A program made the position numbers and the translations under genes. The notes beneath the pieces were generated by a model. That model saw nothing but the letters and a program-made list of their open reading frames with translations, did no database searches and had not been told where the DNA came from. From a virus: a stretch of DNA of 64,000 nt. Of the stretch, positions 3,125 to 34,480 are shown piece after piece; the first letter of the stretch is position 1, and each line of letters starts with the position of its first letter. Location of the stretch: positions 1 through 64,000 of the IMG/VR virus record IMGVR_UViG_3300028840_002150; one strand, 5' to 3'.

Positions 3125-5824
3125 GTGGCGTGCAAAAAAGGACAACCCGGCAACCCCTGTTGCGGTACCTGTATTTTGCTGAGCAAAACGTTTGCCGCGG
3201 CCGGGGACGTGGACTCGTTCACTATCTCCGACGCGTCGCACGTTTATTACAACAACGGCAAGCTCGAAATGGACGCGGCCGATCAATCGGCGGTGACCAA
3301 GCTGAACCACGACCAGACTCCGTATCCACCCAGCGCCAAGGTGACCGTCAGCGGAGACGACGGAAGTGTGGCGAGGCTGTGGATCAGCTACGATCCAACC
3401 GAACAATACGGCCTAGCCGCGGAATTGACATTTGAAGCAAACTGCGCCGAACTGCGGATGTACCAACTGGACCCCGGCGGTGAAACGTTGATTGCGGGCC
3501 CGTTCGGTGTGCCCGGAGCGGGCGCGGGTGAATCCGTTCTGCTGCACGCGTGCTACCATCCGGAAGAAGCGGATTTCGTCGTCTACATCAATCGCGCAGC
3601 GGCTGGAGTCGGCTACACGCGATATGTAGAAGTGTCCGGCCATGTGGACCAAACCAAAGCCGCCATGGCCACCGGCAGCGGGCACACGGGCACAGCGACG
3701 TTCGATGACTTCATTTGGGAACGTTTGTATTACGACACGGAATCCGGCGCCTACGGGTACGAAGAAACGGAGCGAACGTGGTGCGAGTCGTGCGCCAGCT
3801 CGCTGTGCAAGTTCTTTCGCTTGTCCTCAGCGGTTTCGTGCGATTGGGAAGGCAACGAGGAAGACTGGTCATGGGATGACGAAAACGGTTGGATGGAAAC
3901 CGAGGCGGCGGATTCGGTAATTTGGGCGCGCACGACGGTCCCCGAAACGGCCGCTTGGTTCGAGGATATGCCGGGCTGGGACAACGACCGCTACTTCCAA
4001 ATTTACGGCGTGTTCCGCGCCAATAGCGGGCAGCGCACGTTTTCCGTGTACTTCAACGCAGACGAGACGCATACCAACTACAACACGCTGCAAATCACCA
4101 TTGGCTACGGCGAAAACGAAGAGTGCGGCAAGCTGCAACTGCTGGACCAAGATGGGTCGGCGGTGTCGCAAGAGCACATCGTCTACGGGTTGAAGTCGGG
4201 TACGTGGGTGGAGTTCGCCATCGCCTACGATGAAGGCTATATCTGGGCGTTGGTCGGAAACGCGGGAACGGGCTCAACGCCTGCGCCAGCGTTTGTCGCC
4301 GGAGGACCGAGACATCGCGTTAGCAACGATCCGGACAACCCGGTCACGTACAACGGTGGCCATGTCGGCATTGGCGTGGACGATGCATCGGGCTACTACT
4401 ATCAGTACGGAATCGAAGAAGCGGGGCTAGTCGAAGTCTCGTCGTTCGATATGTATCAATCGGAGGCGTGTGCGGAGTTTTCAGCCCAATGCGATCAGGT
4501 TAGAGATCCATCCGACGATGACGAAGATGCGCTAGACGGATGGGGTTCGGTGGACACGGACTTGCCGTGCAACTGGACGACAGACGACGGCACCGAGCCG
4601 GAAATCGTCGCGGATGACGGAGCCAGCGGTGTTCTCGATACAGATCAAGTATGGTGCGAAGCTACGGACCCCTGTGTGATTCGCAATCTTGCCCCAGTGC
4701 CAACAGACACCGAGGACGATTACGTTTTAACGGGGTCTATCGAGTGGTATGACACGGACACTTACGAATTTACGGATCTAGTCGATGCGGTAGGGTTTGT
4801 GTTTGGTAGCGACGGGACAGACTATTACGAGCTGCGTGTCACAAACAACCGCTTGACTAATTTGGATCCGGGCGGGCCGCGTACATACGACTTGGAGTTA
4901 ATTCAGGTCGAAGGCGGAGTAGAAACCGTCTTAGAAACGGCAGCACAGTTTCAAGATTTTGGTGTGCCGTCTGCAAGCGTTACGGCGTGGGTGGATTCGT
5001 CAATGCGACTTTGCTGGAACAATGGAACCGTTACGGCAAACATCGGAGCGATGCAAAAACAGACCGCAGGCGACACACTCAGTCGCGGCATTGTGTCTTA
5101 TGGTGGTTTAACAGCCTACGGCAATTATGTAGGATGGGCCGTGCGCACGGTAACGGAGCGGGTTCGACTTGGCCCGTTGGGCGTTTACGGAGGAACCTAC
5201 GACGGATACGACGAAGACAATCCGTGTGCGTTTTGCATGAGTGAATGCGACGATTGCGAGAACAGCCAGTCCCCATCTATTTTGCTGTTGAATTGCGGAA
5301 CCGGCTGGAAGTCGAAACAAACGTACCCGCCGACTGAAGATTGCCCGCTGTGTGCTTCGTTTTTGGACGAAACGGAAATATACCTGCCGTGGTATGATGG
5401 GCCGAACATCTACAACATGCCCGCTGGTTATCGGTTCGGTCCCGCTAGTTGCCGGTGGCAAAAAATTGAAACAAACCCGTTTAGTCGAACCGATTGCACT
5501 GTATGCAACGCGGTTTTAGGTCTGAGCGTGTGTGGCCCCGATGCGCAAGTGTTCTTCCGTAAAAAAGGCGACTTTCCGGCAACATGGCCGCTGGATTCGG
5601 TGATCGGGACAAAGTGGGCGGTTATTCTCATGCTGACGACAGCTAGGAATTCTTTGACTTCGCCTGATCCAGCAAACTATTTTGCTGCGGTGCTCGATGC
5701 AGAATCGACGGATGCCATTGACTGCTTTGCAGAACTGGCCAACATTGAATTAACTTTTCAGCAAAACGGGTCAAGTACGTGTTTAGGTGAAGACGTAACC
5801 GGAATAGCGCTGTCAATTCCATGA
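3125..5824 (+). CDS. Large acidic, Cys-rich tail fibre / receptor-binding-like protein
   Basis: 899 aa; N-terminal GNPCC, repeated beta-sandwich-like blocks separated by CxxC linkers; end of the structural cluster. Confidence 0.5.
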   Translation: MACKKGQPGNPCCGTCILLSKTFAAAGDVDSFTISDASHVYYNNGKLEMDAADQSAVTKLNHDQTPYPPSAKVTVSGDDGSVARLWISYDPTEQYGLAAELTFEANCAELRMYQLDPGGETLIAGPFGVPGAGAGESVLLHACYHPEEADFVVYINRAAAGVGYTRYVEVSGHVDQTKAAMATGSGHTGTATFDDFIWERLYYDTESGAYGYEETERTWCESCASSLCKFFRLSSAVSCDWEGNEEDWSWDDENGWMETEAADSVIWARTTVPETAAWFEDMPGWDNDRYFQIYGVFRANSGQRTFSVYFNADETHTNYNTLQITIGYGENEECGKLQLLDQDGSAVSQEHIVYGLKSGTWVEFAIAYDEGYIWALVGNAGTGSTPAPAFVAGGPRHRVSNDPDNPVTYNGGHVGIGVDDASGYYYQYGIEEAGLVEVSSFDMYQSEACAEFSAQCDQVRDPSDDDEDALDGWGSVDTDLPCNWTTDDGTEPEIVADDGASGVLDTDQVWCEATDPCVIRNLAPVPTDTEDDYVLTGSIEWYDTDTYEFTDLVDAVGFVFGSDGTDYYELRVTNNRLTNLDPGGPRTYDLELIQVEGGVETVLETAAQFQDFGVPSASVTAWVDSSMRLCWNNGTVTANIGAMQKQTAGDTLSRGIVSYGGLTAYGNYVGWAVRTVTERVRLGPLGVYGGTYDGYDEDNPCAFCMSECDDCENSQSPSILLLNCGTGWKSKQTYPPTEDCPLCASFLDETEIYLPWYDGPNIYNMPAGYRFGPASCRWQKIETNPFSRTDCTVCNAVLGLSVCGPDAQVFFRKKGDFPATWPLDSVIGTKWAVILMLTTARNSLTSPDPANYFAAVLDAESTDAIDCFAELANIELTFQQNGSSTCLGEDVTGIALSIP

Positions 5825-18913: not shown

Positions 18914-20080
18914 TTACCCCCAGGTGAGCATTGCCTTGGCCGCAGCTTCCATGTCTCGCTCCGCGTAGATTTCCGTGGTCCGCAAATCCGAATGGCCGAG
19001 AATGATCCGGGACATTTCGGCGCCGTACTGGCGGCGGATTTCGGTAGCCGCGGTGTGGCGTAACTGATTTGGCGTCCAGGGTGGTATGCCAGCCCGCTGG
19101 CAGGCGAACCGCACCGCATCTGAGTAGCCCGAGTTTTTGTAGGGCCGGTTGGCCAGCTTGGAATGCCGGTCCCGTATCCGCTTCGGCTTGCCGCCGGATT
19201 TTTGTCGTTGGCGCCAGCCCTTTCCCTCGCAGGGACGAAACAGATACCGCTCGGGTTCAGCCGGTTGCATCCAGGCGGTGAGTAGGTCCTGGGCGCGGGG
19301 CCCGCACAGGATAAGCCGGTGCTTGCCGTGGTGCTCGGTCTTGTGCGAAGCGGGACGATACACCCAGACTTGGCCGCGGAGTTGAGCCGGAACGGCAGCA
19401 TCTTCGGCCCGAACATCGCAGGTCCGCACGATCCGGGCTTCACCCGGCCGGCAGCCGGTGTATAGCTGAAACTGGATCATAGCCCAGACCGGCGGGGTGA
19501 CGTATTCGCGGATAGCCTCGACGTGCTCCAGCGGCGCGGGCGGAACATCTCGCGGTTCCGGGGCGTCGGTTTCTTCCCGCCGCAATCCCCGGACCGCCTG
19601 AAGGCCGATCAGCACATCGGGCGGCAGGTACTCCCGCTCCACCCCCCAGCGCCAGACATTTCGGATCCGGCTGACGTGGCCGTTGACCCGGCGCCGGGTG
19701 TAGCCGTGCTCAACCAATTTCTGGCGGCAGGCAATCAGCGCTTGCGGCCCAAATGAGGCGGCCGGAATTCCAGAGTACATCTCAACCACTGGGCGCAGGG
19801 CGTACCGATAGGAGCGAATTTCGCTGGTTGGTGTTCCGGCCTTTTGGTACCGTTTTTCGGCCCAAGAGTAAAATAGGGAGACCAGCTCTGCAACCGTCAG
19901 GACCGCATCGGGTTCCAGGTCCGGCTCGTTGCCGGCCAGGTGTTCCGCGATGACCCGGTGGTATTTGGCGTGGCTTTCCGGGGTACCCCATTTCCCGAGG
20001 TAGATGGCCCGGCCGCGGAGCCGGATTCTGGCCTGTCCGCTGGAGTGGGGCTTCTGCGGGTATTTCGGAGTTCCGGCCAT
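18914..20080 (-). CDS. int: Tyrosine recombinase / phage integrase
   Basis: TGCRPGE (R), HKT (K), PNQLRH, ILGH, TTEIYA (Y); N-terminus GQARIRLRGRAIYLGKWGTPES resembles planctomycete integrases. Confidence 0.93.
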   Translation of the reverse strand: MAGTPKYPQKPHSSGQARIRLRGRAIYLGKWGTPESHAKYHRVIAEHLAGNEPDLEPDAVLTVAELVSLFYSWAEKRYQKAGTPTSEIRSYRYALRPVVEMYSGIPAASFGPQALIACRQKLVEHGYTRRRVNGHVSRIRNVWRWGVEREYLPPDVLIGLQAVRGLRREETDAPEPRDVPPAPLEHVEAIREYVTPPVWAMIQFQLYTGCRPGEARIVRTCDVRAEDAAVPAQLRGQVWVYRPASHKTEHHGKHRLILCGPRAQDLLTAWMQPAEPERYLFRPCEGKGWRQRQKSGGKPKRIRDRHSKLANRPYKNSGYSDAVRFACQRAGIPPWTPNQLRHTAATEIRRQYGAEMSRIILGHSDLRTTEIYAERDMEAAAKAMLTWG

Positions 20081-20131
20081 GGCTCCCGCCTCCTGGGGTA
20101 ATGGTTGCGGCATATCGGATGCTGATGGTAA

Positions 20132-20214: not shown

Positions 20215-20259
20215 CAATATCTGCCGATGGGCAGCGAATAACCTATTGAAAGGACACGG
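20215..20259 (+). repeat. Promoter-like motif; 45-bp exact direct repeat of 44438-44482
   Basis: caatatctgccgatgggcagcgaataacctattgaaaggacacgg at both loci. Confidence 0.9.
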
Positions 20260-32015: not shown

Positions 32016-32041
32016 TAATATCGGCAAGCCCCCGGCGAATA
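32016..32041 (+). promoter_or_regulatory. Repeated promoter-like motif (TAATATC variant)
   Basis: Followed by an A/C-rich leader, GGAG and ATG at 32083. Confidence 0.75.
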
Positions 32042-32650: not shown

Positions 32651-32722
32651 GGATAGGGCACTTGGCCGGGTCGCGGAATTCCAGCCGCGGCCCGGCTTCC
32701 TTTTTCTGCGGGAACCGCGGAC

Positions 32723-33010
32723 ATGAAAAACCGGACATTGACTGTCCGCCGCATGAGTAGCGGCGACTGGAAAATCGTTGGCATCGGCACCGCTCGCCAT
32801 AACGATTTGGTATTGCGCGTCGGAGACGTGTTGACAACCGGGGCGCTGGATCGGATGGACCGTTCCGGGGCGTGGGAAATTATCCGGCAACCGTTGCGTC
32901 AGGACTGGGTGCCGGAATCCAGCCCGACAAAACCGGACACCATCCCGGACCCATCGGTGACCGTGGCGGGGACACCGCTCACGGAGCCGACGGCTTGGAT
33001 GACATGGTGA
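32723..33010 (+). CDS. Hypothetical protein ending in the first attC-like site
   Basis: Stop codon lies in the R'' box position. Confidence 0.5.
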   Translation: MKNRTLTVRRMSSGDWKIVGIGTARHNDLVLRVGDVLTTGALDRMDRSGAWEIIRQPLRQDWVPESSPTKPDTIPDPSVTVAGTPLTEPTAWMTW

Positions 33011-33091
33011 CGCCCGAGAATCACGCGGCCGGCAGTGAGCGAGCCACTGCCGCAACCGCTTCCACTGGCTCGCGTGCATTCGTGGTTATCC
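33005..33091 (+). mobile_element. attC-like site 1
   Basis: GAC..GAATCACGCGGCC ... GGC(T)CGCGTG(C)ATTC..GTTATCC: imperfect palindrome with two unpaired bases. Confidence 0.7.
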
Positions 33092-33094
33092 GGC

Positions 33095-33337
33095 ATGGTC
33101 ACAATCCAAGACATCCCACGATGGTACGTTGACAGAGGAATCGGCCACGCCGTAGCAGGTTGCGGCGATGGGCTCGTGTATACGCTTTGCGAATCGTTGA
33201 TTTGGGCGTCCACTGACGAAACGCAGAAGGACGTGCCGCCGAGGATCTGCCGCAAGTGCCGGCGGAGAATGAAGACAGCCATGCTGACAGAACAGCGTGC
33301 GGATTCCGTGGCCGTGTCCGTTCCGTCTGCCGGATAA
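33095..33337 (+). CDS. Cassette gene A, small Zn-finger-like (in-frame GTG at 33035 inside the attC)
   Basis: H..C...CRKC; stop lies in R'' (GGATAAC). Confidence 0.55.
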   Translation: MVTIQDIPRWYVDRGIGHAVAGCGDGLVYTLCESLIWASTDETQKDVPPRICRKCRRRMKTAMLTEQRADSVAVSVPSAG

Positions 33338-33430
33338 CGTCCGCGATAACCGCGGCGAAGGAGAAGAGTCGAAATGAGCGAAGCGAACGAAGAGGACAAA
33401 TTCGACTGCGGTTCATCGCCGTTGTTATCT
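33332..33430 (+). mobile_element. attC-like site 2
   Basis: GGATAAC..GATAACCGCGGCGAA ... TTCG(A)CTGCGGTT(C)ATC..GTTATCT. Confidence 0.75.
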
Positions 33431-33670
33431 GGCGATCAGCCATGCGGGCGCAATCCCGACTACGATGGATCGCCAGAAGCAGAGATCGCGAGACTGCAAT
33501 CGAGCCGCGATCGTGCGAGACGGGAGCGAGACACATTGCGCAAGGCATTGGAGACGATCGCAGGAAGCCGCATTCCTCCAGCGGACTCGCAAGCCGAATA
33601 CGTGCATCAGCGGGCGACGTACCGTTTGCGATCCGTGGCCCGTGAAGCGTTGGGGATTGATGACGATTGA
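33374..33670 (+). CDS. Cassette gene B, coiled coil; starts in the attC2 loop
   Basis: GGAG and ATG inside attC2; EIARLQ...LR.AL..IA pattern. Confidence 0.55.
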   Translation: MSEANEEDKFDCGSSPLLSGDQPCGRNPDYDGSPEAEIARLQSSRDRARRERDTLRKALETIAGSRIPPADSQAEYVHQRATYRLRSVAREALGIDDD

Positions 33671-33760
33671 GCCGGATGCCCGAGAATCACCCGGCGGCGA
33701 CAAGTAATGAACCAATTGAAACCGCGCCCAATCGCCGCTCGGGTGCAGCCGTGGTTACAT
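33671..33760 (+). mobile_element. attC-like site 3 (R'' lacks AAC)
   Basis: gccggat[aac missing]gcccgaGAATCACCCGGCGGCGA ... TCGCCGC(T)CGGGTG(C)..GTTACAT. Confidence 0.65.
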
Positions 33761-33979
33761 CTTATGACAGCAATCACACGTAATACGCGAGACTGTTTTG
33801 AACTTACCGAACACGCCGGTTCGCAACTACCATCGCGGGTAGAGTTTTCCATCGAGGACGACGACGGAACGACGCGGCTGTTCTGCGACGGGGTGGAAGT
33901 GACGGCGATACAGTGCCGCCGACTGACAGAATGGCTCGGCAACGCGCATAAACGATTGACGGGATTCCGAGGCATTTAA
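33707..33979 (+). CDS. Cassette gene C; starts in the attC3 loop
   Basis: Stop TAA lies in R'' (ATTTAAC). Confidence 0.5.
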   Translation: MNQLKPRPIAARVQPWLHLMTAITRNTRDCFELTEHAGSQLPSRVEFSIEDDDGTTRLFCDGVEVTAIQCRRLTEWLGNAHKRLTGFRGI

Positions 33980-34060
33980 CGGCCGAGAATCAATCGGCCG
34001 GCAGTGAGCGAGCCACTGCCGCAACCGCTTCCATCGGCTCGGGTGCATTCGAGGTTATCC
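33974..34060 (+). mobile_element. attC-like site 4 (near-identical to site 1)
   Basis: ATTTAAC..GAATCAATCGGCCG ... CGGC(T)CGGGTG(C)ATTC..GTTATCC. Confidence 0.75.
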
Positions 34061-34064
34061 GATT

Positions 34065-34370
34065 ATGAGCTACAGCGCGATCAAACTGCGGCGCAAGGCC
34101 ATTGTGGCGGTGGATGCGATGTTGGAGTTGCGGCAAATGATGTGCGACGTGCTGCCGCCGGGGACCGTGGTACAACTGGAGCGTGCCGTGGACGGCAAAT
34201 GGCATCGATTCCAGGGGACGGTCGCTAATTCGCAATACGTCATCGAACAGATACCAGAATCGGGCGTTATTGTCGAAGTGGAGCTGGCCGAATTGCCAAA
34301 GATTCCGCCGGAGTTTCGCATTCGTGACGGATTGGTTGCTGCGCCGTGGACTTGGCTTCGTGACGGATAA
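34065..34370 (+). CDS. Cassette gene D
   Basis: Begins 4 nt after GTTATCC; ends in CGGATAAC, complementary to GTTATCCG. Confidence 0.6.
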   Translation: MSYSAIKLRRKAIVAVDAMLELRQMMCDVLPPGTVVQLERAVDGKWHRFQGTVANSQYVIEQIPESGVIVEVELAELPKIPPEFRIRDGLVAAPWTWLRDG

Positions 34371-34480
34371 CCGGAGGTAAAATATGACCGATCGGACCGT
34401 AATGACAGATACGGATTGAGAAATCGTCATCAGCATCGAAAAAGGCGCAGGAGTGGCTGTGTTGTACGATCCATCGGGAG

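Follow-up and report, generated by a model that had tools for sequence, protein, structure and literature searches.

The DNA analysed here (the window, 64,000 nt) covers the first 64 kb of an IMG/VR phage genome of 102,420 bp, which has direct terminal repeats and is rated 100% complete. The phage encodes a terminase, a portal protein, methylases and a RecT-like protein, carries nearly all of its genes on the plus strand and displays a steady, positive GC skew. Its relatives in the sequence collections are distant, with no more than 41% identity for a flank protein and no more than 43% for the terminase. The only recombinase of the phage is an ordinary tyrosine integrase (18914..20113, minus strand; PF00589, 43.9 bits) encoded about 13 kb from the locus described below, and no relative of this integrase was found in genomes. 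Searches of the phage genome returned neither a Y1 transposase nor a resolvase; Y1 transposase-driven or REP-like elements were accordingly dropped as candidates, as was a serine recombinase, which the genome also lacks.

Downstream of an intrinsic terminator (32664..32707, plus strand) lies a run of small plus-strand genes. ORF Z (32723..33010) is followed by ORF A (33095..33337), an 80-aa Cys-rich, zinc-ribbon-like ORFan with a weak zf-AD match and a protein-atlas score of 0.92 to small phage and bacterial proteins; ORF B (33374..33670), 98 aa with a predicted coiled coil; ORF C (33764..33979), a 71-aa ORFan without a family match; and ORF D (34065..34370), a 101-aa ORFan. For all of these ORFs, Z and A to D, the annotated frame has the best codon score, and the starts of ORFs B and D are those called in the protein collection. 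ORFs A–C have weak codon scores and a GC3 below that of their neighbours. Profile searches gave no family assignment for ORFs Z and A–D, and those of the small ORFs that have a called sequence on record are each a singleton at 90% identity. Copies of a promoter-like motif, CAATATC-N13-CGAATA, flank the region at ~32016 and ~35648, with none inside it.

The genes are separated by four imperfect palindromes of 87–99 nt, which we call c1, p2, c2 and c3, lying within ~1.06 kb. A first-pass annotation made from the sequence had described four palindromes of this size that each run from a gene's stop codon to GTTA, and this is what we find, the stop codons being TGA at 33008, TAA at 33335, TGA at 33668 and TAA at 33977. 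Read on the minus strand, all four have the layout of integron attC recombination sites, in which a 7-nt R'' box and a short unpaired spacer precede an L box and a stem, and a variable loop leads on to a further spacer and an R' box. In c1 (33005..33091) the minus strand reads R'' GGATAAC (33085-33091), spacer CAC and L'' GAAT[G]CACGCG[A]GCC, followed by L' GGC CGCGTG ATTC, spacer TCGGGC and R' GTCACCA (33005-33011); the core of this R' box is GTC, not GTT, and is thus degenerate. The paired inner boxes with two unpaired bases that had been reported earlier are readily seen on the plus strand of c1, where GGC[T]CGCGTG[C]ATTC faces GAAT CACGCG GCC. The minus strand of p2 (33332..33430) has R'' AGATAAC (33424-33430), L'' GCGAT[G]AACCGC[A]GTCGAA and R' GTTATCC (33332-33338), with both cores intact. 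Site c2 (33674..33760) combines R'' ATGTAAC (33754-33760) and a very good L box and loop with a lost R' box, the plus strand reading GCCGGAT at 33675-33681 without the AAC. In c3 (33973..34060) both R'' GGATAAC (34054-34060) and R' GTTAAAT (33973-33979) are intact, and two L-box pairs are mismatched. An R'' box ending in AAC is therefore present in all four sites, and an R' box starting with GTT, which is the crossover site, in p2 and c3. Finally, an orphan R'-type box (34364..34371, minus strand, GTTATCCG) has no attC site upstream of it in the minus sense; following the attC polarity, this is where the array starts.

Sites c1, c2 and c3 form one homologous family: over 83 nt, c1 and c3 share 92% identity, and c2 has the same ends and the central AACCGC. 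The sequence of p2, a strong palindrome, is unrelated to these three. The 102-kb genome contains no further copy of the c1/c2/c3 family; pattern scans with a 14-base repeat pattern in IMG/VR returned chance matches only, and neither longer repeat patterns, scanned in IMG/VR, GTDB genomes and JGI metagenomes, nor a 21-mer from the c1/c3 loop yielded anything real. That the repeat is itself coding sequence was rejected, since its frame differs between c1 and c3.

The ATG codons of ORFs A, C and D stand 3, 3 and 4 nt past the R'' boxes of c1, c2 and c3, respectively, which places an ATG at a fixed 11–12 nt after GGTTA in all three. The TAA stop codon of ORF A falls inside the p2 R' box and that of ORF C in the c3 R' box. 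In p2 the overlap goes further: its variable loop contains both the Shine-Dalgarno sequence (AAGGAG, 33358) and the ATG (33374) of ORF B, and codons 1–19 of ORF B lie inside the site.

The first-pass annotation had also pointed to complementarity between the two ends of each unit. The paired strings are all in place, namely GTTATCCGGCA (33085-33095) with TGCCGGATAAC (33328-33338) at 11/11, GTTATCCG (34054-34061) with CGGATAAC (34364-34371) at 8/8, GTTACAT (33754-33760) with ATTTAAC (33973-33979) at 6/7, and GTTATCTGGC (33424) with GCCGGAT (33675). They do not prove circular cassettes, because boxes of different units match no worse than the two ends of one unit: for the box at 34361-34371 the agreement is 10/11 with the box at 33085 and 8/11 with its own partner at 34054. 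The complementarity thus reflects one R-box motif shared in two orientations and is not cassette-specific. Such a shared motif would be expected of attC sites and would not prove circular intermediates.

The annotation had proposed an assay with a planctomycete integrase and had called for a check with an attC covariance model. Planctomycete genomes were located via a 16S probe sequence, and an integron integrase (IntI) scoring above the TIGR02249 cut-off is present in three of the four genomes tested. In Stieleria magnilauensis the array beside IntI consists of a family of 83–94 nt repeats with boxes resembling those of c1, c2 and c3, and the integron of Planctomycetaceae SH139 has the same repeat type. 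We built a covariance model, R2, exclusively from 15 attC sites next to IntI in these two genomes; R2 is therefore a proxy attC model and not IntegronFinder's own. The 15 host sites share a common architecture, in which a 7-bp R box is set off by a 4-nt spacer from an L box made up of 4 bp, an extrahelical G, 6 bp, an extrahelical A and 7 bp, with a 5-nt spacer after it. In R2 the L-box helix is 96.9% paired, with compensatory changes at 11 of 17 pairs. An integron that had not been used in training, that of Adhaeretor mobilis, yielded seven attC sites at 15.8–57.7 bits on the expected strand, and in host genomes R2 detects co-oriented arrays amounting to at least 139 and at least 145 sites per genome.

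On the whole 102-kb phage R2 finds exactly four matches, c1, p2, c2 and c3, all on the minus strand and scoring 17.6–35.2 bits. Three are full-length (c1, 21.4 bits, E 5e-4; p2, 26.3 bits, E 1.4e-5; c3, 17.6 bits, E 0.008), and the match to c2 (35.2 bits, E 2e-8) is local, covering model positions 15-76 at 33687-33747. Nothing is matched beyond 34060, the next-best score in the window is 11.8 bits, and neither the remaining phage nor another viral locus has noise above 12.4 bits; in about 1 Mb of other viral DNA a single match came up, a genuine attC-like site in another viral contig. The L box of phage and host shares the 4 bp, extrahelical G, 6 bp and extrahelical A, and a joint alignment of nine host or viral sites with the four phage sites shows no variation in the extrahelical G and A or in the TGCAC and GTGAT boxes. 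Given that the model picks out these four sites and no others in the phage, chance falls far short of explaining the likeness. With this model match and alignment, the proposal of integron-type attC sites, of the planctomycete kind as had been guessed, is borne out. Note that the phage sites score low against typical host copies, which reach 55–95 bits.

The R2 type of site is restricted to its clade, since R2 finds none of ~45 classical (gamma-type) attC sites in three control phages; this is in line with the published taxon-specific attC models, which include one for Planctomycetes (PMC8352920). A gamma-type proxy, R1, was trained on eleven attC sites, ten from Shewanella phage M16-3 and one from phage TJE1. 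R1 recovered unseen Vibrio attC sites at 21–39 bits, and on 170 kb of control DNA all of its other matches fell inside known cassette arrays. In the window it matches p2 only (minus strand, 20.5 bits; next best 12.5 bits), compared with a maximum of 15.6 bits in other DNA, and it gives true planctomycete attC sites only 12–19 bits. Rfam holds no family matching the repeats. A hand-written attC scanner was abandoned as too unspecific.

Could the repeats be something other than integron sites? T4-type PeSLs are cassettes of a promoter and a stem-loop that act via homologous recombination, and regulatory intergenic repeats of this kind, or processing hairpins of the RNase III type, with a chance likeness to attC might be imagined for elements that are intergenic, confined to one operon, set at a fixed distance before a start codon and, for c1, c2 and c3, missed by the gamma-type R1. 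Against this stand four co-oriented R2 matches in ~1.06 kb with none elsewhere in the phage, and extrahelical bases and boxes identical to those of host attC sites. Furthermore, the CAATATC-N13-CGAATA motif and T runs of the terminator type are absent from the repeats, and no sigma-70-like site lies within c1, c2, c3 or p2, i.e. the promoter that characterises a PeSL-like cassette is lacking. Reverse-oriented phage promoters in the repeats were likewise rejected. We regard the regulatory-repeat reading as close to refuted and as highly improbable. That the locus is an attC array of four co-oriented planctomycete-type sites in a complete 102-kb phage is, conversely, well supported.

The annotation had noted that the window lacks an IntI, and the same is true of the rest of the phage: the best TIGR02249 score in the whole 102 kb is 26.2 bits, that of the tyrosine integrase, against a cut-off of 265, and no intI gene stands beside the array as it does in a complete integron. 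This makes the locus a CALIN (cluster of attC sites lacking integron integrase), a class defined by at least two close attC sites with no IntI nearby; here there are four sites and no IntI in 102 kb.

The extrahelical bases and the R2 model agree that the attC top strand is the minus strand of the phage. Since the extrahelical T and C of the plus strand lie in the 3' arm, the plus strand is the recombinogenic bottom strand. ORFs A–D, encoded on the plus strand, thus lie on the attC bottom strand and start next to R'', which departs from the canonical cassette order; in the host cassettes that we inspected the ORF is on the top strand and its stop codon is next to R''. Because the bottom strand is here the coding strand, each unit reads attC and then gene along the plus strand. 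This polarity also corrects the first-pass annotation, which had named G/TT: with the minus strand as top strand, the crossover would fall at AA|C at the gene stops and not at the plus-strand G|TT ahead of the start codons. From the sequence, crossovers would be predicted at 33337/8 (p2), 33978/9 (c3) and 34370/1 (orphan box). With GTC in c1 and no GTT at R' in c2, at most two sites, p2 and c3, look competent.

A second viral contig, IMGVR_UViG_3300044608_002311 (27.7 kb), carries one strong R2 site (61.2 bits) whose flanking genes run opposite to the attC top strand, the same reversed polarity as in the phage. Neither an IntI-like nor any other recombinase match was found in this contig. Judged by its terminase, the contig is a distant relative of the phage. 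The shared polarity hints at a rule, and one could accordingly picture a phage-specific form of integron cassette, in which the attC sites joined to phage genes have the coding strand as their recombinogenic strand and in which host IntI shuffles small accessory genes between planctomycete phages, or else cassettes in the making from phage genes. In such a form the coding strand would probably also be the lagging-strand template, given the steady positive GC skew. We consider this elaboration doubtful.

The first-pass annotation had further proposed comparing related phages for cassette gain or loss exactly at G/TT. The only ORF D homologue, P0055, on a 1494-bp ENA contig is 86% identical, with similarity from exactly the ATG onward, and the 66 nt upstream of it encode something unrelated to c3. 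An ORF B homologue, P0056, on a 1969-bp JGI contig that is absent from IMG/VR, is 79% identical over residues 1–62; because conservation begins at Met1, the similarity spans the plus-strand G|TT at 33424/5. The C-terminus of P0056 differs from that of ORF B, possibly through a frameshift. Neither relative shows a gain or loss at the sites: one is similar straight across the G|TT and the other diverges at the start codon.

A rival reading is that the array is a fossil, i.e. that the attC-derived sites are no longer recombined and have been kept as mRNA elements. ORFs A, C and D would then have the palindromes as their leaders, and the p2 hairpin would hide the start codon of ORF B together with its ribosome-binding site until ribosomes that finish translating ORF A reach the stop codon and open it (translational coupling). 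The layout of p2 speaks for such a role: the base of the hairpin begins at that stop codon, the Shine-Dalgarno sequence and ATG of ORF B sit in its loop, and the peptide encoded by a p2 arm, FDCGSSPLLSG, is identical in ORF B and its 79% relative. As RNA, the plus strand of p2 has a folding energy of −43.4 kcal/mol (z = −4.15; none of 200 shuffles is as stable), compared with z = −2.19 for the minus strand. The fixed GGTTA-to-ATG spacing in c1, c2 and c3, the damaged R' cores of c1 and c2, the low R2 scores and the lack of IntI in the phage all point the same way. However, the RNA folds of c1, c2 and c3 (z −0.9 to −1.6) are no more stable than shuffled sequence, the 92% identity of c1 and c3 points to gene conversion or to a source shared until recently, not to prolonged decay, and the cores of p2 and c3 are complete. 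As a full account of the array this reading is possible, though we give it clearly less weight than the explanation favoured below; as to present-day function, a role in mRNA structure is a serious alternative.

The abundance of attC sites in the presumptive hosts suggests yet another use, in which the circularised phage recombines with host attC arrays, through IntI or homology, and so enters the chromosome as one giant cassette. More than 100 such sites are present in planctomycete genomes, distributed over many arrays; in Vibrio anguillarum, a prophage with chromosomal attC sites on either side has been described (PMC9892861); and the second viral contig combines a single strong attC site with the lack of a recombinase match. 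The phage, however, has its own tyrosine integrase 13 kb away, and four gene-separated sites exceed what attachment needs. Moreover, BLAST of c1 against 401 planctomycete genomes gave short marginal matches only and no c1-like host copy. We therefore consider whole-phage attachment quite unlikely.

The explanation that we favour overall, and hold to be probable, is a planctomycete-type CALIN that is partly decayed and on which host IntI could act in trans. A single-stranded plus strand would let the attC sites fold, and IntI provided in trans by the host could then cut AA|C at 33337/8 and 33978/9. By this route intervening genes would leave or enter the array, or be swapped with other DNA that bears attC sites. 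Recombination by host IntI is a reasonable inference. Both cores survive in p2 and c3 alone, so that the array is partly decayed and its current activity probably low. Several observations run against this explanation: the scores are low compared with those of host sites, the R' boxes of c1 and c2 are damaged, the genes are on the bottom strand and ORF B starts inside p2. In addition, neither relative has gained or lost anything at the sites, the 86% relative of ORF D differs in sequence immediately before its ATG, and no copy like c1 turned up in the 401 planctomycete genomes or in the scans of GTDB, IMG/VR and JGI.

To our knowledge, phages of Planctomycetota have been little studied. The locus extends phage-borne attC arrays to this phylum, whose genomes hold hundreds of attC sites, and offers a sequence-based host assignment for an uncultured 102-kb phage. 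Its arrangement, with all genes on the bottom strand and one of them beginning inside an attC site, is unlike that of the host arrays and phage CALINs that we examined. If host IntI acts here, phages would exchange small accessory genes at the array, which would also let genes flow between phages and chromosomal integrons; if it does not, the array would be a record of attC decay and of the possible reuse of attC sites as mRNA structures.

Compared with T4-type PeSLs, the locus shares repeated intergenic stem-loops beside small ORFan genes in a plastic phage region, which could mediate shuffling, but its repeats have no promoter motif and match an attC model. The sedentary chromosomal integrons and CALINs of Stieleria magnilauensis, Planctomycetaceae SH139 and Adhaeretor mobilis have the same boxes as the phage sites (AAC-CA, TGCAC, extrahelical G/A, GTGAT), and the host arrays are likewise co-oriented with small cassettes of 300–700 bp. 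They differ in that they lie beside IntI or form long IntI-less arrays, in that their ORFs are on the top strand and end next to R'', and in that their R boxes are mostly GAAC/GTTC, whereas those of the phage are TAAC/GTTA. Single attC sites and cassettes outside att sites, as described in 10.1101/2022.09.11.507474, resemble the phage locus in that the cassettes lie away from the integron platform; they are single insertions, in contrast to the four-site array found here. Closest are the phage CALINs published in 2023 by Qi et al. (PMC9892861), in which five of the six phage attC sites tested were recombined by IntI1 in trans. They, too, have at least two attC sites within a few kb, no IntI and small cassettes in between. 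However, their sites are of classical look, with those of TJE1 and the Shewanella phage being found by R1, and the genes of these two CALINs are on the attC top strand, whereas here all are on the bottom strand; the sites described here are of the planctomycete type, one gene starts inside an attC site and two sites are without an R' core. The kind of element is already known in phages; what is new is its planctomycete type, its reversed polarity and the start of a gene inside an attC site.

ORFs A-D (33095-34370), the small plus-strand genes of the attC array, differ in composition from the neighbouring phage genes: their GC3 is lower (0.58-0.67 versus 0.73-0.79) and their codon scores are weaker. 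Upstream, the array is preceded by an intrinsic terminator (32664-32707). A bipartite phage promoter-like motif, CCAATATC-N13-CGAATAACC, precedes many small plus-strand genes between window positions 20239 and 59382 (e.g. copies at 32016, 35648, 36206, 37880 and 38095), and no copy of it falls within the attC array.

The plus-strand RNA of the attC site p2 (window 33326-33436) forms an unusually stable predicted hairpin (-43.4 kcal/mol, z = -4.15). This hairpin begins at the stop codon of ORF A and has both the Shine-Dalgarno sequence and the ATG of ORF B inside it, so that, besides being attC-like, it may couple the translation of the two genes. ORF B itself diverges beyond residue 62 (window 33555-33670) from P0056, its homologue on a JGI contig, and because the C-terminus of P0056 is similar to a different frame of the window, the comparison suggests that the two phages differ by a frameshift.

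On another viral contig, IMGVR_UViG_3300044608_002311, there is a lone planctomycete-type attC site with a high score (61.2 bits), on the minus strand at 3713-3804. The flanking genes lie on the strand opposite to the attC, and a search of this contig for an IntI-like match returned none. The contig is 27.7 kb long, is rated 46% complete and carries a distant relative of the terminase.

The genome of Planctomycetaceae bacterium SH139 encodes at least eight near-identical copies of a ~477-aa ORF, at 6.13-6.47 Mb and at 7.13 Mb. The IntI model matches these ORFs with its N-terminal and its C-terminal part; the scores, 120.9 and 82 bits, are below the cut-off. The regions with these copies also contain attC arrays of the type described by R2, our covariance model of planctomycete chromosomal integron attC sites.
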